IMG/VR virus record: IMGVR_UViG_2645727604_000006
Direction: 5' to 3' (one strand)
Source: a virus
Taxonomy: Duplodnaviria; Heunggongvirae; Uroviricota; Caudoviricetes
DNA length: 46,540 nt
Part shown: positions 13,631 to 39,600 of the stretch, piece by piece
Position numbering within the stretch: position 1 is the first letter of the stretch
How the letters are laid out: every line of letters starts with the position of its first letter
Translations under genes and position numbers: made by a program
Notes under the pieces: generated by a model
The model's database searches: none
Told to the model about the DNA's origin: nothing
Seen by the model: only the letters and a program-made list of their open reading frames with translations

Positions 13631-14203
13631 ATGAATACGGTTGATTTATTTCGTGCCATGTTACCACCGGTCAGCTATGACCCGAACGGGAAATATATTT
13701 CAGCAGAACTGAACGCAGAAGCAGCCATTATGGATGAAGTAAAAGCGTCAGCTGCACGAGTGCTTGCATCTGTCACACCATTTTACGCATCCATGACGCT
13801 GTCTGACTGGGAACGAGTGTATGGAGTAATACCCCGCGACGGTGCCACACAGCAGGAACGCCGAGAAAATATTCTTATAAAGATGGCTGCAACTGGTGGG
13901 TTATCTATCCCTTATTTTAAACAACTTGCAGCCAGCCTCGGGTACACCATAACAATTACTGAACTTCATCCATTCAGAGCGGGGATAAACCGATGTGGTG
14001 ATCGTCTCTATATAACAGATGCCCGATGGATTTGGCAGGTTAATGTCACAGGAAGCAGAACGCCAGCCTACAGATTCAGAACCGGAGTATCTGCTGCCGG
14101 GGAGCCGTTACTTTCCTTTGGTGCCCCTGTACTGGAAGAAACATTTAAAGACCTTAAACCCGCTTTTACTTATTGCCATTTCACATATAAGGAGGAGCAG
14201 TAA
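13631..14203 (+). CDS. tail protein (Mu gp48-like, P2 gpI-like)
   Basis: 190-aa ORF between the baseplate J gene and the tail fibre gene. Confidence 0.6.
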
Positions 14204-15027
14204 TGCAAAATCTGATGCCCCCGATAAATACACCGGATCAATTGTTTCATGATGGTGACCCCACTCAGGGGATAGAAGGAACCCTCGTGACTGCTGGTTA
14301 TTTAAACAATCAGCAGGGGGCAACCCGTGATTTACAGCAGGAACTCCTTAATGTTCTTGGTGGTGCACATATTCAACCTGACCCCAAAAAAACGGATCAG
14401 CTACTTACCGCGCTTCGCGCGTTGCTGTTAAGCCGCAAAAATCCGTTTGGCGATATCAAATCGGACGGCACAGTACCAACGGCTCTCGAAAACCTTGGTT
14501 TGGGAGAAGGTGCTCCAGCTATTGGCGTTCCGTTCTTCTGGCCGTCCGCAGCAATGCCAGATACCGTAATCGATAGCTGGTCCAGCATGGTGTTTTTGAA
14601 GTTCAACGGCGCGAAATTCTCTGCCACTGATTACCCTGTGCTGGCGAAAGTGTTTCCGGCGCTGGCATTACCTGACGCACGCGGTGATTTCATTCGTATC
14701 TGGGATGACGGGCGCGGGATTGATGTCGGACGTACCCTACTTTCAGGGCAATCACACACAATTATGGATCATGCACACAATATGGAATTGTGGACGGGGG
14801 ACGGGCTTGCCGCAGGAAGTGCACGGGAAGGAGTAAACCCAGGAATACTGGCTACATATGGTGACGGGGGAATAGTTAAAACGGACGAACCCGGTCTTAA
14901 GGTGCCTTCCTCACTACGAGCTCTTAGCTCTCGTAGTGTTAAACGTTATGGTGAAATTAGTGGACATGTAGGTACAGAAACCCGTCCACGAAATATTGCA
15001 TTTAACTTTCTGGTGAGGGCTAAATAA
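14203..15027 (+). CDS. tail fibre protein: constant N-terminal part fused to the currently expressed variable part
   Basis: 274-aa ORF. The crossover site at 14484-14509 lies inside the gene (about codon 94-102). The C-terminus [16 protein letters not shown] resembles tail-fibre tips. Confidence 0.75.
14484..14509 (+). repeat. left crossover site of the invertible segment (gix/cix/hix-like)
   Basis: TCTCGAAAACCTTGGTTTGGGAGAAG. The core TTGGTTTGGGAGAAG (14495-14509) recurs as its exact reverse complement at 16379-16393. Confidence 0.65.
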
Positions 15028-15620
15028 TGAAACCTGTTTTTGATGAAAATGGGCTGGCTACAGTGCCGGGTGATATGCGTTGTTTTTATTATGATGCAGT
15101 AACGTCTGAATATACGGGCTGGTCTGATGAATATATTAATACTGGCGTAAGTATGCCCGCCTGTTCCACTGGTATTGACCCGGGCGAATACATTCCGGGG
15201 AAAGTGGCAGTATTTACGGGTAAGGGATGGCGCCATGAAGAAGACCACCGCAATGAGACTGTTTACTCAATCGAAAATGGCGCAGCTGTTACAGTGGATT
15301 ATATCGGTGCCATCAAAGACGGTTATGTCACGCTTTCACCGTTAACGCCATACGATAAATGGGATGGTGAGAAATGGGTGACGGATACCGAGGCACAGCA
15401 TAGCGCCGCACTAGACGCGGCAGAAGTAAAGCGCCAGTCGCTGATTGATGCTGCAATGGCTTCCATCAGTCTGATTCAGCTGAAATTACGAGCCGGGCGG
15501 AAGCTGACGCAGGCAGAAACCACCCGACTTAACGCTGTGCTGGATTACATTGACGCGGTGGAGGCAACAGATACCAGCACCGCGCCTGATGTCATCTGGC
15601 CTGAACTGCCGGAGGCGTAG
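15027..15620 (+). CDS. tail fibre assembly chaperone (Tfa, U-like)
   Basis: 197-aa ORF immediately after the fibre gene. Its C-terminus (LDYIDAVEATDTSTAPDVIWPELPEA) is paralogous to that of the minus-strand Tfa. Confidence 0.75.
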   Translation: MKPVFDENGLATVPGDMRCFYYDAVTSEYTGWSDEYINTGVSMPACSTGIDPGEYIPGKVAVFTGKGWRHEEDHRNETVYSIENGAAVTVDYIGAIKDGYVTLSPLTPYDKWDGEKWVTDTEAQHSAALDAAEVKRQSLIDAAMASISLIQLKLRAGRKLTQAETTRLNAVLDYIDAVEATDTSTAPDVIWPELPEA

Positions 15621-16032
15621 GCCATTCAATATCTGGCGCACCGGAAGTATCGACCAGTTCCAGTGCGTCCAGATAATCCAGCCACAAATTATATTGCGCC
15701 AGTTCCTCACCTTTCAGGCGACCAATCGCCGCTTTACCAGGCCATTGCTTACTGTTTATGTATTCGTTGACCTGATTAATCAATTGCTGCTTTTCCAGTT
15801 CGGCTGCGGCAATTTGTTCCTCATGAGTTGGCGGTGGAATATCAATCCATGCAGGCATTCCGTCGATGACACCTCTGTATTTTCCTTCTGGTGCTTCCTT
15901 CATAAATTCGGCGGCAACAGTGTCGTCAATTTCGATTCCATCATCGGGCCATTCACCGGATTCCTGATAAGCGATTTTAAGCTCCACAGGGAAAAACGCA
16001 TTTTTATCGGCACTGAAAATATATTTCTGCAT
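15592..16032 (-). CDS. alternative tail fibre assembly chaperone (U'-like)
   Basis: 146-aa ORF ending LDYLDALELVDTSGAPDIEWPTPPAVQAR, convergent with the + Tfa and overlapping it by 29 bp. Confidence 0.7.
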   Translation of the reverse strand: MQKYIFSADKNAFFPVELKIAYQESGEWPDDGIEIDDTVAAEFMKEAPEGKYRGVIDGMPAWIDIPPPTHEEQIAAAELEKQQLINQVNEYINSKQWPGKAAIGRLKGEELAQYNLWLDYLDALELVDTSGAPDIEWPTPPAVQAR

Positions 16033-16034
16033 TT

Positions 16035-16433
16035 CTACCGTCCTATCGAAATATAACTGAATCTGTATTGCTGTGAGATATCACTGGTTGCCACACGCCA
16101 CGCTGAATTACTGATATGTTCAAAATTTACAGACAAAACCTGCGGGGCAGGATTCGACGGGTCTGACTGAACGGCATCAGACATAACACTGACTGAAACC
16201 ATCGGCTGATTAGGGAATGGTATAGGGAAGTGTCCACTGATAAAGCGGGTCGTGTTTCCTGAAAAAGTGCCAAACTGAACAATATATCCACCTGGTAGCC
16301 TGAACCATCCCGAACCAGAAGCGAATGCTCCCATATCCGGTATCTGATTATCTCCTGTGCCCACATCCCTTTTCGCCGCTTCTCCCAAACCAACGTTTAA
16401 GAAAATGCAGAGATTACGGCTAACTGGCATCAT
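16035..16433 (-). CDS. alternative tail-fibre variable segment (S'-like); silent in this orientation
   Basis: Minus-strand ORF running through the right crossover site. It encodes NVGLGEAAKRD at the site, matching [10 protein letters not shown] in the + fibre gene. No constant N-terminal part is attached in this orientation. Confidence 0.6.
   Translation of the reverse strand: MMPVSRNLCIFLNVGLGEAAKRDVGTGDNQIPDMGAFASGSGWFRLPGGYIVQFGTFSGNTTRFISGHFPIPFPNQPMVSVSVMSDAVQSDPSNPAPQVLSVNFEHISNSAWRVATSDISQQYRFSYISIGR
16379..16405 (+). repeat. right crossover site of the invertible segment, inverted
   Basis: CTTCTCCCAAACCAACGTTTAAGAAAA, whose reverse complement contains TTGGTTTGGGAGAAG. Confidence 0.65.
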
Positions 16434-16460
16434 CTCCGGTTTTTATTCAGGGGGATGCTC

Positions 16461-16556
16461 ATGCTTATTGGCTATGTACGCGCATCAACAAATGACCAGG
16501 ACACCGATTTACAACGCAATGCGTTGAACTGTGCAGGATATGAGCTGATTTTTTGA
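16461..16556 (+). pseudogene. truncated Din-family serine DNA invertase (Gin/Pin/Cin-like); only the first 31 codons remain
   Basis: Encodes MLIGYVRASTNDQDTDLQRNALNCAGYELIF then TGA, which matches the conserved N-terminus of Gin/Pin/Cin invertases (MLIGYVRVSTNDQ...). Similarity stops near codon 31; downstream sequence is unrelated. Confidence 0.75.
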
Positions 16557-16592
16557 GGGTAAATCATCAGCATGAGACTAATAATTTAGCGT

Positions 16593-16652
16593 CCAATTCT
16601 GGGCTTTTTGGTTGCGCTCTCTCCGCCCAGAATTGTGCGCCAATTAGCCCAG
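16593..16652. promoter_or_regulatory. palindromic repeat cluster in the junction region; candidate operator or hairpin
   Basis: CCAATTCTGGGC (16593-16604) with an 11-bp perfect inverted partner GCCCAGAATTG (16625-16635), 20-bp spacer. A third partial copy CCAATTAGCCCAG at 16640-16652. Confidence 0.3.
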
Positions 16653-17253
16653 AAAAAAACGCGAAGTTACAAACCGTTTGTCGCAACAGCTGGTGGTCAG
16701 TGTCGCTGCACACCTGTTGTTACGGCATGAATGCAGATTACCAAATCACCTGGCTGTAAGTAACCACAGAGAACTTTACCTGACTGTGGGGGGCGAGTTG
16801 TGCAGGAACTTAACCGCTGGTTTCGTGACGGAAGAGGACTTTATGTTCATGTTATTCGTTGGGAGCCAGAAACACAGCGCGTTATCTATCTTCGCAAAGA
16901 CTACCCGCATGAGTGCTTTAGTCCTTTGTGGAAATTCAGGCGTGATTTTGTTGAGTGTGAAGGACCACCAGCATATTGATTCTGCAATTCCGGGACGTTA
17001 CACTGTTCAGGCACCTTATAAAGCGGGTGCCGGGATTGGCGTCCTGAAATTGTCAACGGCGATGTATGACGCGCCAGCGTCTTTTTTATCGTCCGCATTT
17101 GCTCACATCCAGATTATGGTGGGCTGGGCGGGGGCACCGAAAGGTGCGCCGGTCTCCGTTGACGCCGGTTACGCCAACCCCGTCCAGTTCACCACCAGTG
17201 AAATTGGCGTTTCCGGTGGTGGAAGTTTTTCACTGTCAACGGAGGCTGCCATC

Positions 17254-17811
17254 ATGGCTACGATCCAAGCCCTCACTCAACCTGAAATCACCATTGACAA
17301 CGGCCAGGCCGTTACCACTTCTTTGGCTGTTGCCAACTTCTTCTCCAAGCGTCACGACGATGTGCTGAAAAAGATCCGCACTCTGGATTGTTCCCCTGAG
17401 TTTTGTGCCCGCAATTTTGCGGAGACATCGATTTCGGTAAATCAACCGAACGGTGGTACACGCAAGCTCCCTTGCTATCAAATCACACGAGACGGTTTTG
17501 CGTTTCTTGCTATGGGTTTCACGGGTAAACGTGCTGCCCGGTTCAAAGAGGCATACATCAATGCCTTTAACCAGATGGAAAAACTGCTTTCAAAGCCATC
17601 CACGCTGAGCGATGCCGCAGATAACGCCAGCGTGCTTTACTCCCACCTGTCGGTAATCCACAAGGTCTGGCTGCAGCAGCTTTATCCTATGTTGGCAAAA
17701 GCTGAATCTCCGCTGGCTGTTAGCTTATATGATTATATTAATGATGCTTCGGCGCTGGCCTGCCTCATAAATTTGTCGCTGAACCCTTCAGAGGTAAGGG
17801 GGCGCAAATGA
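17254..17811 (+). CDS. Rha-family phage regulatory protein
   Basis: The N-terminus MATIQALTQPEITIDNGQAVTTSLAVANFFSKRHDDVLKKIR fits the Rha pattern. GGAGG at 17241-17245 lies 8 nt before the ATG. The frame is open much further upstream (track ORF from 16678), but that part does not look protein-like. Confidence 0.6.
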   Translation: MATIQALTQPEITIDNGQAVTTSLAVANFFSKRHDDVLKKIRTLDCSPEFCARNFAETSISVNQPNGGTRKLPCYQITRDGFAFLAMGFTGKRAARFKEAYINAFNQMEKLLSKPSTLSDAADNASVLYSHLSVIHKVWLQQLYPMLAKAESPLAVSLYDYINDASALACLINLSLNPSEVRGRK

Positions 17812-18032
17812 TCCGGAATATTTTCAAACGGTTTACCAATCAGACTTTCCGTTGTCCTCGTCCGGGTCAGTGGTACACCACACCTGCAGGGCATGTTCTA
17901 CGTGTTAGCCTGGTTGACCGTGAATGTCAGAAGGTGATTTGTGAACCGCTGGGCCGTAATTACCGCGTCAGTATGCCGCTTATAGCCTTTCGCTCCGGAA
18001 AAAACATGAAGCATCTCGGAGGTGCTGCATGA
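17808..18032 (+). CDS. hypothetical small phage protein
   Basis: 74-aa ORF translationally coupled to both neighbours (ATGA overlaps). Confidence 0.35.
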   Translation: MIRNIFKRFTNQTFRCPRPGQWYTTPAGHVLRVSLVDRECQKVICEPLGRNYRVSMPLIAFRSGKNMKHLGGAA

Positions 18033-18847
18033 GTATGGAGCTGATGGTTAAAGCGATGAAAATTCGAGTGGGTAATCCATTGCGAAAACTGGTTCTGATC
18101 AAGCTGGCTGATAATGCCAGCGATCAGGGGGAGTGCTGGCCCAGCTACCAGCATATTGCTGACCAGTGCGAGATTAGCAAACGTTCTGTGATGAATCATA
18201 TTGCGGCCCTTTGTGAGTCCGGGCTGGTAAAAAAAGTCACCCGGAAAGGTGAAAAAGGTAACTCAAGTAATATCTATCTCCTTCATCTGGATGGTGCAGG
18301 AGATTCACTAGGGGGTAGTGCAAATAATTCACTATCTGGCGCAGCAAATTCACCAGGTAGTGCAGGAGTTGCACCAGGGGGTAGTGCAGGAGATTCACCC
18401 AGAACCAGTCACTCTTTTGAACCAGTCAAAGAACCAGTCAATGAACCAATAGCTGTTGGTGCATCAGTTGATGAGTCTGTGCGAGTTCGTTCAAACCGAC
18501 CGGAATACTCTCCGGAGTTTGAGCAGGCATGGCTGGCATATCCCAAACGTGCTGGTGGCAATTCAAAATCTGCAGCCTTCAAAGCCTGGAAAGCCCGTTT
18601 GAATGAGGGGGTAAACCCCGAAACCATGCTGGAAGGTGTGAAACGCTACGCGGGCTGGGTATCTGCGATGGGTAACAGCGGCACACAATTTGTGAAACAG
18701 GCTGTCACGTTCTTTGGTCCGGATCGTCATTTCGAAGAATCCTGGGAAGTTCCTGCGGTATCTGCAGCCAGACGTGAGGACCCGTACTTCAAAGCCAGTT
18801 ACGACAACGTGGACTACAGCCAGATCCCGGCAGGATTCAGGGGGTGA
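18029..18847 (+). CDS. putative replication initiator / winged-helix DNA-binding protein with an internal repeat-encoded linker
   Basis: The N-terminus (LRKLVLIKLADNASDQGECWPSYQHIADQCEISKRSVMNHIAALCESGLVKK) looks like a wHTH. A low-complexity linker is encoded by DNA repeats. The C-terminal domain contains AWLAYPKR. The architecture is analogous to lambda O with ori iterons inside the gene. Confidence 0.45.
   Translation: MSMELMVKAMKIRVGNPLRKLVLIKLADNASDQGECWPSYQHIADQCEISKRSVMNHIAALCESGLVKKVTRKGEKGNSSNIYLLHLDGAGDSLGGSANNSLSGAANSPGSAGVAPGGSAGDSPRTSHSFEPVKEPVNEPIAVGASVDESVRVRSNRPEYSPEFEQAWLAYPKRAGGNSKSAAFKAWKARLNEGVNPETMLEGVKRYAGWVSAMGNSGTQFVKQAVTFFGPDRHFEESWEVPAVSAARREDPYFKASYDNVDYSQIPAGFRG
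18293..18440 (+). repeat. iteron-like direct repeats inside the initiator gene; candidate origin
   Basis: GGTGCAGGAGATTCAC at 18293-18308 and 18383-18398. GTAGTGCA three times. ATTCAC four times. GAACCAGTCA at 18402, 18419 and 18431. Confidence 0.4.
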
Positions 18848-18849
18848 TC

Positions 18850-19338
18850 ATGAGTCTTTTGAATGAAGTTCAGAAATACATTGAAGCCCATCCGGGGTGT
18901 ACTTCCGGAGACATTGCGGATGCTTTTGCAGGTTACTCACGGCAGCGCGTTCTGCAGTATGCAAGCAAGTTACGTCAGAGTGGGCGTGTGGCTCACCGTT
19001 GTGAAGGAGATACACGCAGACATTTCCCGCGCCTGACTGAGAGAGCGCAGGAGCTGGAACCACAACCAGTTCGTGAAACCAGACCTGTGCGCAATTTCTA
19101 TGTCGGCACTAACGACCCGCGGGTGATTTTGTGCCTGACCCGCCAGGCGGAAGAACTGGAGTCAAGGGGCTTATACCGTCGTGCTGCAACCGTGTGGATG
19201 GCGGCATTCCGTGAAAGCCACTCCCAGCCAGAACGAAACAATTTTCTGGCACGTCGTGAGCGGTGCTTACGGAAAAGCAGCAAGCGCGCTGCATCGGGTG
19301 AAGAGTGGTATCTGTCAGGGAATTACGTGGGGGCTTAA
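18850..19338 (+). CDS. PerC-like (Pch-like) transcriptional regulator with an N-terminal wHTH-like region
   Basis: The C-terminal motif ELESRGLYRRAATVWMAAF...RRERCLRK resembles the PerC family signature (ELESKGLWRRAA.RWL) as recalled. AGGGGG precedes the ATG at 18850. Confidence 0.45.
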   Translation: MSLLNEVQKYIEAHPGCTSGDIADAFAGYSRQRVLQYASKLRQSGRVAHRCEGDTRRHFPRLTERAQELEPQPVRETRPVRNFYVGTNDPRVILCLTRQAEELESRGLYRRAATVWMAAFRESHSQPERNNFLARRERCLRKSSKRAASGEEWYLSGNYVGA

Positions 19339-19991
19339 TGAGTAATAAATATTGCCGGGCGCTGGTGGAACTGCGGAACAAACCAGCCCATGAACTGAAG
19401 GAAGTGGGCGATCAGTGGCGCACGCCGGATAACATTTTCTGGGGAATTAACACCCTGTTTGGCCCGTTTGTCCTGGATCTGTTTACTGACGGTGATAACG
19501 CCAAATGTACCGCGTATTACACGGCGGAAGACAACGCGCTGGCGCATGACTGGTCAGAACGTCTTGCGGAGCTTAAAGGTGCTGCCTTTGGTAATCCCCC
19601 ATACAGCCGCGCCAGTCAGCATGAGGGGCAATACATCACCGGCATGCGTTACATCATGAAACATGCCAGTGCCATGCGTGATAAAGGCGGGCGCTATGTT
19701 TTCCTGATCAAAGCTGCCACCTGCGAAGTGTGGTGGCCGGAAGATGCAGATCATATTGCTTTTATTCGCGGGCGTATTGGTTTTGAACTGCCTGCCTGGT
19801 TTATCCCGAAAGATGAGAAGCAGGTGCCGACAGGCGCTTTCTTCGCTGGTGCTATTGCTGTTTTCGACAAGACCTGGAAGGGACCGGCAATCAGCTACAT
19901 CGGGCGCGATGAACTTGAGGCATGTGGTGAGGCGTTTCTGGCGCAGGTTCGCCAGCAGGCAGAAAAACTGGTCAGGGAGATGGCGGCATGA
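19338..19991 (+). CDS. phage N6-adenine DNA methyltransferase (phage Dam-like)
   Basis: Catalytic motif FGNPPY; about 218 aa; nin-region position. The ATG at 19338 overlaps the upstream TAA. Confidence 0.75.
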   Translation: MSNKYCRALVELRNKPAHELKEVGDQWRTPDNIFWGINTLFGPFVLDLFTDGDNAKCTAYYTAEDNALAHDWSERLAELKGAAFGNPPYSRASQHEGQYITGMRYIMKHASAMRDKGGRYVFLIKAATCEVWWPEDADHIAFIRGRIGFELPAWFIPKDEKQVPTGAFFAGAIAVFDKTWKGPAISYIGRDELEACGEAFLAQVRQQAEKLVREMAA

Positions 19992-20314
19992 CGACGTTAA
20001 CTCAATGCCAGCAGCAGGTGCTGGATATGCTGATTTCTTATCAGAAAGAACGTGGCTTCCCGCCAACCAATCAGGAGGTGGCAACCATGCTGGGATACCG
20101 TTCAGTGAATGCAGCGGTGGAGCATCTTCGCGCACTGGAGAAAAAAGGCGTCATCACGATAAAGCGTGGCGTGGCCCGGGGGATCACGCTTCATACCGCG
20201 GTGAAGGACGACGACAGCGAGGCGGTCGGGATTATCCGCTCACTGCTTGCCGGTGAGGAAAACGCAAGGCTGCGTGCAACCCACTGGTTACATGAGAGAG
20301 GCTTGAAAGCATGA
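19988..20314 (+). CDS. LexA-like DNA-binding domain protein lacking the S24 peptidase domain
   Basis: 108 aa. The N-terminus LTQCQQQVLDMLISYQKERGFPPTNQEVATMLGYRSVNAAVEHLRALEKKGVI resembles the LexA N-terminal wHTH. No Ser/Lys peptidase domain follows. Confidence 0.55.
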   Translation: MTTLTQCQQQVLDMLISYQKERGFPPTNQEVATMLGYRSVNAAVEHLRALEKKGVITIKRGVARGITLHTAVKDDDSEAVGIIRSLLAGEENARLRATHWLHERGLKA

Positions 20315-36684: not shown

Positions 36685-39600
36685 TTTGGGGATTGATGCG
36701 GCAGAGTTTAAAAATGAAATTCCCCGTATCAAAAACCTTCTGAATGGTGCAGCCAGCGATGCAGAACGGTCTTCTGCCCGTATGCAGCGTTTTATGGAGC
36801 GTCAGACTCAGGCCGCCCGGCAGACAATGCAGGCGGCTTCTTCGGCTGCAACAGCCGCATCCGTCCATGCGCAGACGGTGGAGAAGAGCGCACAGGCTCA
36901 TGAACGCATGGCCCGCGAGGTGGAGCAAACCCGCCAGCGTATGGAGGCACTGAGCCAGAAAATGCGCGAGGAACAGGCACAGGCCATGGCTCTGGCGGAG
37001 GCTCAGGATAAAGCGGCTGCCGCGTTTTATCGTCAGATTGACAGTGTGAAACAGGCCAGTGCGGGGTTGCAGGAATTACAGCGTATTCAGCAGCAGATCC
37101 GACAGGCCAGAAACAGTGGCGGGATTGGTCAGCAGGATTATCTGGCGCTGATTTCTGAGGTTACGGCGAAAACCCGTGTTCTTACGCAGGCTGAGGCAGA
37201 GGCTACCCGACAGAAAGTGGCGTTTATCCGTCAGCTTAAAGAGCAGGCAACCCGCCAGAATCTTTCTTCTTCTGAGTTGCTTCGTGCCAGGGCTGCCCAG
37301 CTGGGGGTAAGCAGTGCTGCAGAAGTGTATATCCGCAAAATGGAGCGGGCAGGAAAAGCCACGCATTCGCTGGGTCTGAAAAGTGCAGCGGCCCGCCAGG
37401 AGATAGGCGTTCTGATAGGTGAACTGGCCCGCGGCAATTTAGGGGCGCTGAGGGGATCCGGGATAACGCTGGCTAACCGTGCCGGATGGATAGACACACT
37501 GATGTCACCGAAAGGCATGATGCTGGGCGGGGTTATTGGCGGTATTACCGCGGCCGTCTATGGTCTGGGTAAAGCCTGGTATGACGGTCAGAAGGAGGGG
37601 GAAGAATTTAACCGCCAGCTGTCGCTGACGGGGCATTATGCCGGAGTCACTGCCGGGCAGCTGTGGACGCTCAGTCGTGCTATTTCCGGGAATGGTATCA
37701 CGCAACATGCTGCAGCCGGTGCGCTGGCTCAGGTGGTGGGGAGTGGTGCATTTCGTGGAAACGATATCGGTATGGTGGCGAGAGCTGCCGCACAGATGGA
37801 GCGATCGGTTGGCCAGTCGATCAGCGATACCATAAATCAGTTTAAGCGGCTGAAGGATGATCCTGTAAATGCCGCGAAGGCTCTGGACAATGAGCTGCAT
37901 TTTCTTACTGCCACTCAGCTTGAGCAGATACGCATCCTTGGAGAGCAGGGGCGGTCCAGTGATGCGGCACGGATAGCCATGTCTGCACTGGCAGAGGAAA
38001 CCGGTCGGCGTACTGCGGATATTGATAATAACCTCAATGCGCTGGGTAGTACGCTGCAAACCTTGTCTGACTGGTGGAAGCAGTTCTGGGATGCGGCCAT
38101 GAATATTGGTCGTGAAGATTCGCTGGATGCGCAGATTGCCACTTTGCAGGAGAAAGTATCGCGGGCGAAAAGACTCCCCTGGACGGCATCATCTTCTCAG
38201 GTTGAATACGATCAGCAGCGTCTTAACGAGCTTCAGGAGAAAAAACGCCAGAAGGATTTGCAGGATGCAAAAGAGCAGGCAGAGCGGAATTATCAGGAGC
38301 AACAGAAACGACGTAATGCTGAAAATGCTGCACTGAACCGGATGAATGAAACGGAAGCAGCACGACATCAGCGTGAAATTGCGCGTATTAATGCCATGCA
38401 GTACGCCGACCAGGCTGTCAGGGATGCGGCGATACAACGTGAAAATGAACGTTACGAGAAAGCCCTGGCATCCGGTAAGAAAAAAACACGCGAAACCCGT
38501 AATGATGAGGCCACCCGGTTATTGCTGCAGTACAGTCAGCAACAGGCACAGGTGGAAGGACAGATTGCTGCTGCAAGACAGTCAGCAGGCATTGCCACTG
38601 AAAAGATGACAGAAGCGCATAAACAGCTTCTGGCTCTGCAGCAGCGCATCAGCGACCTGGACGGGAAAAAACTGACGGCAGATGAAAAGAGTGTGCTGGC
38701 CCGTAAAGATGAACTGATTCAGGCACTGACGCTGCTGGATGTAAAACAGCAGGAGCTTCAGAAACAGACGGCACTCAACGATCTGAAGAAAAAAACAATT
38801 CAGCTGACCAGTCAACTGGCTGAAGAAGAGCGCGCTCAGCGTCAGCAACATGACCTGGATATCGCCACGGTGGGTATGGGTGATCAGCAGCGGCAGCGAT
38901 ATCAGGTACAACTGAGCCTTCGCCAGAAATACCAGCAACAGCTGGAGCAGTTGAGGCGGGATAGTGAGCAGAAAGGGACATATAACACGGATGACTACAG
39001 AAAGGCCGAGCAGGCGCTGACGGAGAGCCTGAACAGGCAACTGAATGAGAATCGCCGTTACTGGCAACAGCTTGAAATTGCTCAGGGTAACTGGAAAAAC
39101 GGTGCCATGCGGGCGTTTCAGAATTTCACGGCAGATGCGGATAATGCGGCAGGCACTGCGGAGCAGATGCTTACAGCGGCATTTAATAGTGCAGGTAATG
39201 CACTGGCTACATTCTGTACCACCGGAAAACTGAACTTCAAATCTTTTACCGCCTCGCTCCTTTCTGATCTGGCAAAAATCATGGCTCAGATGTCCATGAT
39301 GCAGGCAGTTAAGGGGATTGGTTCGGCGTTTGGCTGGGGGAGTGCAGCAACTGCCAGTGTGACGCCCAATGCTGATGGTGGTGTTTATCAGTCTGCTGAT
39401 TTGAGTCGCTACAGTGGCACGGTGGTTAACCGTCCGACGTTTTTTGCTTTTGCAAAAGGTGCAGGTGTGATGGGGGAAGCTGGGCCTGAAGCCATTCTGC
39501 CTCTGCGTCGTGGTGCTGACGGTAAGCTGGGGGTTGTGGCGGATATTGGTGGTTCAGGTATGGCGATGTTTGCCCCGCAGTACAACATCGAGATCAATAA

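Follow-up and report, generated by a model that had tools for sequence, protein, structure and literature searches.

A candidate lambda-type replication origin inside the initiator gene of a phage module that lacks a helicase loader

Results and discussion

An initiator gene with a dyad array in its linker

The window analysed here is a 46,540-nt stretch of DNA from a Caudoviricetes virus (IMG/VR virus record IMGVR_UViG_2645727604_000006), and our subject is one of its genes, which encodes a putative replication initiator and carries an array of short repeats within its own reading frame (Table 1). The protein matches the Pfam family HTH_36 (PF13730; aa 17-67, E 1.8e-11, 44.1 bits against a cut-off of 25) and PHROG 270, 'replication initiation protein' (1.7e-88). 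By tblastn it shares 100% identity with the 'replication protein' of Shigella phage SfV, orf39, and sb42 of ST64B is 88% identical to it. It has no match to Pfam Phage_rep_O (PF04492) at E values up to 0.01, the positive control, lambda O, scoring 5.7e-36. NCBIfam holds no specific family for the initiator, and a PDB sequence search with it returned low-complexity noise only.

An AlphaFold2 model shows a winged helix at aa 1-85 (pLDDT ~90; helices 40-47 and 51-64, strands 67-73 and 79-85), in which aa 51-64, KRSVMNHIAALCES, form the recognition helix. Foldseek with the whole model gave nothing beyond generic winged-helix matches, DnaD-N (2v79) among them. Residues 91-156 are predicted to be disordered (pLDDT below 50, ~35), aa 160-240 are modelled as a confident small helical domain for which no confident structural relative was found, and the final 28 residues have low model confidence. 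Among relatives, the N- and C-terminal domains shuffle independently.

Table 1. Features of the initiator locus (positions in the window)
Feature	Position	Strand	Basis
Conserved 74-aa ORF, PHROG 1153, = SfV orf38; stop overlaps initiator start codon	17808..18032	+	
Initiator gene, 272 aa	18029..18847	+	ORF list; HTH_36; PHROG 270; tblastn
N-terminal winged-helix DNA-binding domain, aa 1-87	18029..18289	+	AlphaFold2, Foldseek
Disordered interdomain linker, ~aa 88-156; holds whole origin-like element	18290..18496	+	AlphaFold2 pLDDT
Iteron 1, GTGCAGGAGATTCAC	18294..18308	.	
Iteron 2, GTGCAAATAATTCAC	18318..18332	.	
Iteron 3, GCGCAGCAAATTCAC, reads GCGCA	18339..18353	.	
Iteron 4, GTGCAGGAGTTGCAC, arms perfectly complementary	18360..18374	.	
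Iteron 5, GTGCAGGAGATTCAC	18384..18398	.	
Near-invariant 31-bp block CCAGAACCAGTCACTCTTTTGAACCAGTCAA, two GAACCAGTCA copies inside	18399..18429	.	conservation in homologous genes
Third GAACCAGTCA (18431-18440) and degenerate fourth copy GAACCAATAG (18443-18452)	18431..18452	.	
Helical C-terminal domain, ~aa 157-244, motif FEQAWxxYPKRAGGNSK	18497..18760	+	
C-terminal tail SQIPAGFRG	18818..18844	+	match to E. coli DnaT C-terminus
PerC/YfdN-like gene, 164 aa, in place of relatives' helicase loader	18844..19338	+	Pfam PerC

The original prediction, made from the letters of the window, had placed direct repeats at 18290-18445 inside a low-complexity linker of this protein. This location was confirmed: the repeats start at aa 89, straight after the winged helix (which ends at aa 85-87), in the stretch modelled with a pLDDT of ~35. 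Its word list stood except for one entry, as the 16-mer GGTGCAGGAGATTCAC occurs once (18293) and not twice; the 15-mer GTGCAGGAGATTCAC, which is GGTGCAGGAGATTCAC minus its first G, does occur twice (18294 and 18384). The other words were counted correctly, with GTAGTGCA found three times (18315, 18357, 18381), ATTCAC four times (18303, 18327, 18348, 18393) and GAACCAGTCA three times (18402, 18419, 18431), the latter with no other copy in the window. These words are fragments of a larger structure in which the GAACCAGTCA copies follow five 15-bp dyads of the form GTG(C)A-N5-T(T/G)CAC that lie within 18294-18398 at spacings of 24, 21, 21 and 24 bp, or about two helical turns, each repeat having its own internal 5-N5-5 symmetry. 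Iteron 3 deviates by a C at 18340, a rare allele carried by 2 of 61 distinct alleles, where relatives have a T that restores the consensus GTGCA.

The strict pattern GTGMANNNNNTKCAC has four matches inside these 105 bp and one elsewhere in the 46.5 kb, against 0.5 expected by chance, and at least five matches were obtained in 0 of 100 shuffles. There is no second cluster of the motif in the window. The sole other strict match, GTGCAGGTAATGCAC at 39189-39203, is a single copy inside the tape-measure gene and is probably due to chance.

Constraint on the repeats at the DNA level

To separate DNA-level from peptide-level constraint, we used a synonymous-recoding null in which the peptide of aa 88-140 was kept and its codons were redrawn 20,000 times. 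Recoded sequences held at most two dyads (four observed) and at most two copies of AACCAGTCA, the motif of the block that follows the dyads (three observed); four or more dyads arose in 0 of 20,000 recodings. Nucleotide diversity was measured in IMG/VR loci L013-L092, which supplied 61 distinct alleles that share one N-domain. The paired values for third positions and for positions 1+2 were 0.027/0.001 in the N-domain, 0.046/0.013 in the C-terminal part, 0.006/0.008 in the dyad region and 0.004/0.005 in the block. In the last two regions, third codon positions are constrained as much as positions 1+2.

The same picture emerged from a homologue set of 80 loci, one genome per species (genera including Enterobacter, Pseudomonas, Rahnella, Xenorhabdus, Proteus, Aeromonas, Shewanella and Marinomonas), to which 11 phage loci were added. 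Sixty-four genes whose recognition helix is of the S[KR]RSV type, spread over many genera of the Gammaproteobacteria, contain 271 strict motifs in a 260-nt linker window (mean 4.2 per gene), spaced by 21-24 bp, and a single strict motif in the 413 kb outside their linkers. The motif is found in two reading frames of one gene in 43 of 61 genes, where it encodes peptides such as ...SAGDS... and ...VVQEIH.... The dyad arms are conserved and the 5-bp spacer drifts by lineage (ggaga, aataa, cctcc, aaatc, aatgc and others), a pattern characteristic of sites for dimeric proteins. Copy number varies as well, from three in Stx2a_F403 to seven in Stx2_EH2085, and IMG/VR alleles differ by +21 bp or +/-12 bp in the repeats, a variability that would be in keeping with iterons. 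Conservation of the linker as protein and not as DNA, which the original prediction had named as the finding that would speak against it, is the reverse of what we observed: the motif is kept while the peptide changes, between homologues and within genes. These patterns show that the repeats are constrained as DNA and not as peptide, and that the five dyads are functional sites at the DNA level.

The repeats are also a frameshift-prone spot. Two truncated initiator alleles, from Pseudomonas bharatica (L112, 133 aa) and Erwinia tracheiphila (L143, 118 aa), have frame slips in the iteron/block region and end in ...PEPVTLLNQ(S) and a stop.

Half-sites that follow the recognition helix

Across the family, each type of recognition helix goes with its own half-site. 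Helices of the types ..KRSVMNH.., ..RRSVINH.. and similar ones pair with GTG(C/A)A...T(T/G)CAC, ..KRSVMRH.. and ..RRTAMRH.. with GTGAC...GTCAC, and ..KRTAMRA.. with GTGTC...GTCAC. Likewise, ..RSTVKSH.. is found with GGGCA...TG(C/A)CC (in Stx2a_F403 and Stx2_EH2085), and ..KSAVRNH.. and ..KTSVRNH.. with TGCCA or TAGCA...TGGCA. From this co-variation of half-site and recognition helix we infer that the N-terminal winged helix binds the dyads as a dimer. A 5-N5-5 array was not seen in one Pseudomonas subgroup (..DRSTVRKH..), where the geometry may be different.

A conserved block next to the dyads

Directly after the last dyad lies a 31-bp block. Of 91 homologous genes, 80 have it, irrespective of which iterons, C-terminal domain or partner gene they carry. 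Third codon positions in the block are 86-100% conserved, a rare AGA codon included, against 55% in the N-domain core. Depending on the gene, AACCAGTCA is translated as RTSH, EPV or NQS, and in Shewanella genes its first copy is read as PEPVT. The number of 12-bp GAACCAGTCA-type units differs between alleles. In position, the block occupies the place of the AT-rich region of lambda. The block might be read by the initiator through a conserved face, by a host factor, or as single strands through contacts made during melting or helicase loading.

Full-text literature searches for the motifs matched unrelated primers only, Rfam had no match in the origin region, a tRNA search found none and a promoter scan of 16400-19600 gave no sites; terminator-like sites from the scan of the same interval were judged irrelevant.

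A module without a helicase loader

As the original prediction had stated, no P- or DnaC-like loader gene follows the initiator. Searches by tblastn for DnaC-, lambda-P- and DnaB-like genes were empty across the whole window and in the stored flanks of 84 related loci, and the next gene is the PerC/YfdN-like gene, which also stands directly after the initiator in 84 of 85 loci with the tail type described below. Most relatives have a partner gene whose start is overlapped by the initiator stop codon. Twenty-eight partner ORFs encode AAA+ proteins of the IstB/DnaC-like type, 25 of them directly downstream; 21 encode Phage_lambda_P proteins, with 20 directly downstream; and 13 encode a DnaB-like helicase, directly next or second in line. 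Nineteen further ORFs (Pseudomonas, Vreelandella, Zymobacter; for example L104:3893-4699) encode a 246-296-aa protein without a Pfam match, translationally coupled to the initiator in 18 of the 19 cases, which by its position is a candidate for a new helicase-loader or adaptor family. The nearest relatives with the same C-domain carry DnaC-like and DnaB-like genes (Aeromonas phage AsXd-1, Rahnella, Phytobacter) or a DnaB-like gene (Kosakonia).

Weigel and Seitz are said to have used the term 'initiator-solo' for such modules in 2006; the term had no occurrence in the literature that we searched. Modules of this kind have been counted in 34 of 314 lambdoid phages, which have O only and whose replication 'is not yet understood' (PMC12315714), and the loader-less window agrees with these published O-only modules. 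On the replication proteins of Eru-type Stx phages there is said to be 'no knowledge' (PMC8951638); the window is probably of type Eru6 (Rha + HTH_36).

A DnaT-type C-terminal tail

The initiator ends in ...VDYSQIPAGFRG and E. coli DnaT in ...EPDSQIPPGFRG, so that 8 of 9 positions agree between two exact C-termini (SQIPPGFRG in DnaT). The tail EPDxxIP[PR]GFRG ranks with the best-conserved parts of DnaT in a set of 105 orthologues. In further members of the C-domain family the C-terminus reads ...ISEPD(T/K)xIP(P/A/S)GFRG, which extends the match with DnaT to about 14-17 residues. The initiators of mEp460_4F5 and vB_EcoS-569R4 (L173:2122-3102 and L175:2161-3102) carry a lambda-O-type C-domain, clearly similar to the C-terminal (P-interacting) domain of lambda O, and they too have the DnaT-type tail, followed by yfdN and no P or loader gene. 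The 569R4 initiator contains further repeats of its own, in peptide and DNA alike (DPSKSDASKSDPSKFDASKS), after its HTH_36 domain.

More generally, the C-terminal tip (last 6-12 residues, loci L093-L172) tracks the partner type across the family: tips W..E.W.DF[IL] or DPEDPLI go with lambda-P-like partners, ..R(N)EYL with the 246-296-aa Pseudomonas partner, and varied tips with DnaC-like partners. That the tip follows the partner type suggests that tips are docking elements. For the window, the tail suggests that the initiator could recruit the host helicase-loading machinery. We also noted that many initiator tips are acidic with an aromatic last residue, reminiscent of SSB-type C-terminal docking tips.

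Comparison with lambda and other systems

The closest layout is that of phage lambda, which we read directly from NC_001416. Lambda O has 299 aa with its Phage_rep_O domain at aa 22-115, and four annotated 18-bp dyad iterons begin at O residue 117 with spacings of 20, 24 and 23 bp in frames 0, 2, 2 and 1; beyond them lie 45 nt with an AT content of 76%. The analogy drawn in the original prediction is thus borne out, since both arrays lie in the linker right after the DNA-binding domain (residue 117 in lambda, 89 here). Both consist of four to five dyad-symmetric repeats about 20-24 bp apart in several reading frames, and among lambdoid O proteins and their iterons, as in the window family, the iteron type follows the N-domain type. 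The differences lie in the parts. The lambda N-domain is Phage_rep_O and that of the window HTH_36; the lambda iteron is TCCCTC...GAGGGA and the one here a 5-N5-5 dyad of GTGCA/TTCAC; where lambda has its 76%-AT region, the window has the family-wide invariant 31-bp block of about 60% AT; and lambda has a P gene whereas the window has none. The C-domain is unrelated to that of lambda O and ends in the DnaT-type tail.

Relatives within the family, Pectobacterium phage ZF40 (gp14-gp15), Aeromonas phage AsXd-1 and Klebsiella phage ST15-VIM1phi2.1, share a homologous N-domain, the iteron array and the block, but in them a DnaB-like, DnaC/IstB-like or lambda-P-like gene is translationally coupled to the initiator, whose C-terminal tip is of another kind. 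With E. coli DnaT (primosomal protein i) the window initiator has the extreme C-terminus EPDxxIPxGFRG in common, and not the DnaT N-domain or the acidic PriB-binding linker. E. coli dnaT lies directly upstream of dnaC, as some tail-bearing phage initiators lie immediately before a DnaC-like gene.

Initiator sites inside the gene of the initiator itself are known from Bacillus phage SPP1 (oriL in gene 38), the lactococcal phage TP901-1 (repB) and P1 (oriL in repL), all with unrelated protein families, repeats and hosts. Plasmid iteron replicons of the RepA, pi and TrfA types differ by having iterons outside the rep gene, DnaA boxes and an AT-rich DNA unwinding element (DUE), whereas the repeats of the window are intragenic and have neither. 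A search among plasmids for a natural minimal replicon matched phage-sized circles; a 28-kb Arsenophonus element was uninformative, as it carries RepL and another Rep. A domesticated lambda-O-like protein, DopC of Cellvibrionales, joins an HTH_36 O-like N-terminus to a DnaT C-terminal sequence (Brezellec et al. 2017, PMC5509034). This protein is encoded on the chromosome with the P-like DopE as its partner, and its iterons are reported lost (PMC5509034), whereas the window protein belongs to a phage, keeps a complete set of iterons and lacks any P-like partner.

A proposed origin and its alternatives

We consider it likely that 18290-18452 is a lambda-type replication origin inside its own initiator gene, working along the following lines. 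Dimers of the N-terminal winged helix would bind the five dyads, and the origin-bound oligomer would destabilise the adjacent conserved block (18399-18440). Because the phage brings no helicase or loader gene, the C-terminal part of the initiator could then recruit the host DnaB-DnaC machinery, with the tail ...SQIPAGFRG as the docking element, and the phage would plug into the DnaT-dependent loading pathway of its host. The earlier idea that the repeats may be the replication origin is supported by the lambda layout and by the DNA-level constraint, as far as sequence analysis reaches.

Several observations weigh against this proposal. Binding, unwinding and replication are all read from sequence, so that the region is best called a putative origin. 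The DnaA boxes or AT-rich unwinding element that the original prediction had proposed to look for nearby did not turn up: no strongly AT-rich region lies beside the repeats (57-62% AT in the block against 76% in lambda), and there is no DnaA box near them, the nearest DnaA-box-like site being at 17654 (one-mismatch matches number 14 across the window, against 9.5 expected). Nothing in the analysis points to a reader of the invariant block. For the tail, the literature searched assigns no partner to its counterpart in DnaT. The DnaT-type tail is also present before a DnaC-like gene in Enterobacter (L094, L096) and in Shigella phage POCJ13, and is thus not exclusive to solo modules; in E. coli, tail and downstream yfdN travel as one mosaic segment, and the association of the tail with solo modules may therefore be partly linkage. 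Finally, a profile comparison of the C-domain with DnaT (hhalign) gave a 10% probability, which is not significant, and Pfam found no DnaT three-helix domain (PF17948) in the initiator. Our claim is limited to the tail and does not extend to homology of the C-domain with DnaT. DnaT mimicry as the way in which solo modules load their helicase is, in our view, a tentative model, somewhat on the improbable side. The combined view, in which EPDxxIPxGFRG is a transferable DnaT mimic that docks on DnaC, DnaB-DnaC or PriA and the AACCAGTCA block is a family-wide origin element, appears rather doubtful.

The strongest alternative is that the repeats are sites for the initiator and not an origin: autoregulatory operators, a roadblock to transcription or translation, or copy-control (handcuffing) sites, with replication starting elsewhere or by recombination-dependent priming. 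Plasmid iterons do serve in both autoregulation and copy control, and the missing unwinding element and DnaA boxes fit this alternative. It also finds some backing in the phages of the group, which lack Rec modules, are Chi-rich and have been discussed as recombination-dependent for growth (PMC12315714). We nevertheless judge it unlikely, given that the position, number, spacing, dyad form and frame-independence of the repeats equal those of the mapped lambda origin, that the invariant block sits exactly at the unwinding place of lambda, and that the motif forms no second cluster in the window.

Neutral, slippage-prone tandem repeats, or a hotspot of mosaic recombination between N- and C-domains, without any binding function, would account for the copy-number variants, for the truncated frameshift alleles that end here and for the independent shuffling of the two domains. 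Neutral repeats would not keep a half-site code, however, and here the arms are kept, the spacers vary and the half-site changes in step with the recognition helix across Escherichia, Pseudomonas, Shewanella and Vibrio, which makes this explanation very unlikely. Least probable of all is a by-product of selection for a repetitive, flexible Gly/Ser/Ala/Pro linker peptide, since, although the region does encode a low-complexity disordered linker and relatives have peptide repeats (GGAGADR seven times, for example), this would leave unexplained the recoding null, the same DNA motif in two or three frames encoding unrelated peptides, a preserved dyad symmetry that is meaningless for a peptide, and a diversity that has no codon-position signature.

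A lambda-type origin in an initiator gene is of a known kind; what is new here is the family-specific iteron code, the invariant block that is not AT-rich, and a loader-less initiator with a DnaT-type tail. We found no description of an origin in this family in the literature, the older SfV and ST64B papers and the 2006 review of replication modules lying outside our coverage. If the iteron reading alone is true, the locus adds one more member to the lambda-ori class, ordinary in kind though well documented. If the proposed mechanism also holds, the origin would be served by host restart-type loading machinery, the previously undescribed AACCAGTCA block may serve, as DNA, for melting or loading in place of an AT-rich DUE, and the phage tail would point to how DnaT recruits DnaB and DnaC, a question that is itself open (PMC13377028). 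The analysis provides an origin candidate with a half-site code, a route to peptide-neutral mutations and a 9-residue target in the tail, which makes it testable how O-only lambdoid phages replicate (PMC12315714). It also bears on the identity of the replication proteins in non-lambdoid 'Eru' Shiga-toxin phages (PMC8951638), as the same module, at 97-99% identity, is present in Stx2c, Stx2a and Stx2k phages, where phage replication drives toxin gene dosage.

Distribution of the module and its context in the window

At the DNA level the module is 97-99% identical to that of SfV, mEp460, phiSTEC1575-Stx2k, 1720a-02, Stx2c phages, Ayreon and others. Phages that carry the solo module, namely SfV, mEp460, Ayreon and the Stx2c and Stx2k phages, are plaque-forming or inducible. 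Parts of the module, at least the 3' part, are present in 2718 of 5426 complete E. coli genomes. The 74-aa ORF just upstream of the initiator may have an accessory role in replication; SfV (orf38), ZF40 (gp13) and AsXd-1 have small ORFs of comparable length in the same place.

The window itself looks chimeric or deleted. Matches to Mu/SfV-like myovirus tail and tail-fibre modules upstream stop where the DNA invertase gene of those modules begins, at about 16556-16571, and matches to an antirepressor-initiator-Q-lysis-lambda-like late region start at 16672, the interval 16556-16672 being the junction of two prophage parts. Both the invertase and the cI/cro/operator (pR) region, which lies upstream of the module in SfV and ST64B, are missing here. 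With cI/cro/pR absent, the module may be silent and may not fire in this element. Upstream of the junction, alternative copies of tail-fibre and tail-fibre-assembly genes at 15592-16433 (minus strand) stand opposite those at 14203-15620 (plus strand), the layout of an invertible host-range segment whose invertase was lost at the junction.

Between the junction and the initiator gene, Rfam identified IsrK (17011-17087, 62 bits) and a C4 antisense RNA (17112-17199, 81 bits) just upstream of a Rha-type antirepressor ORF (17236-17811), an arrangement that forms a P1/P7-style antisense immunity cassette. Given these RNA genes, a 377-aa ORF with a TTG start (16678-17811) is probably spurious in its 5' part. 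Downstream of the PerC/YfdN-like gene, a 108-aa protein (19988-20314) consists of a LexA DNA-binding domain only (Pfam LexA_DNA_bind, 2.9e-19), without the peptidase domain, and a protein of this type is found at the same position in SfV, mEp460_4F5 and 569R4.

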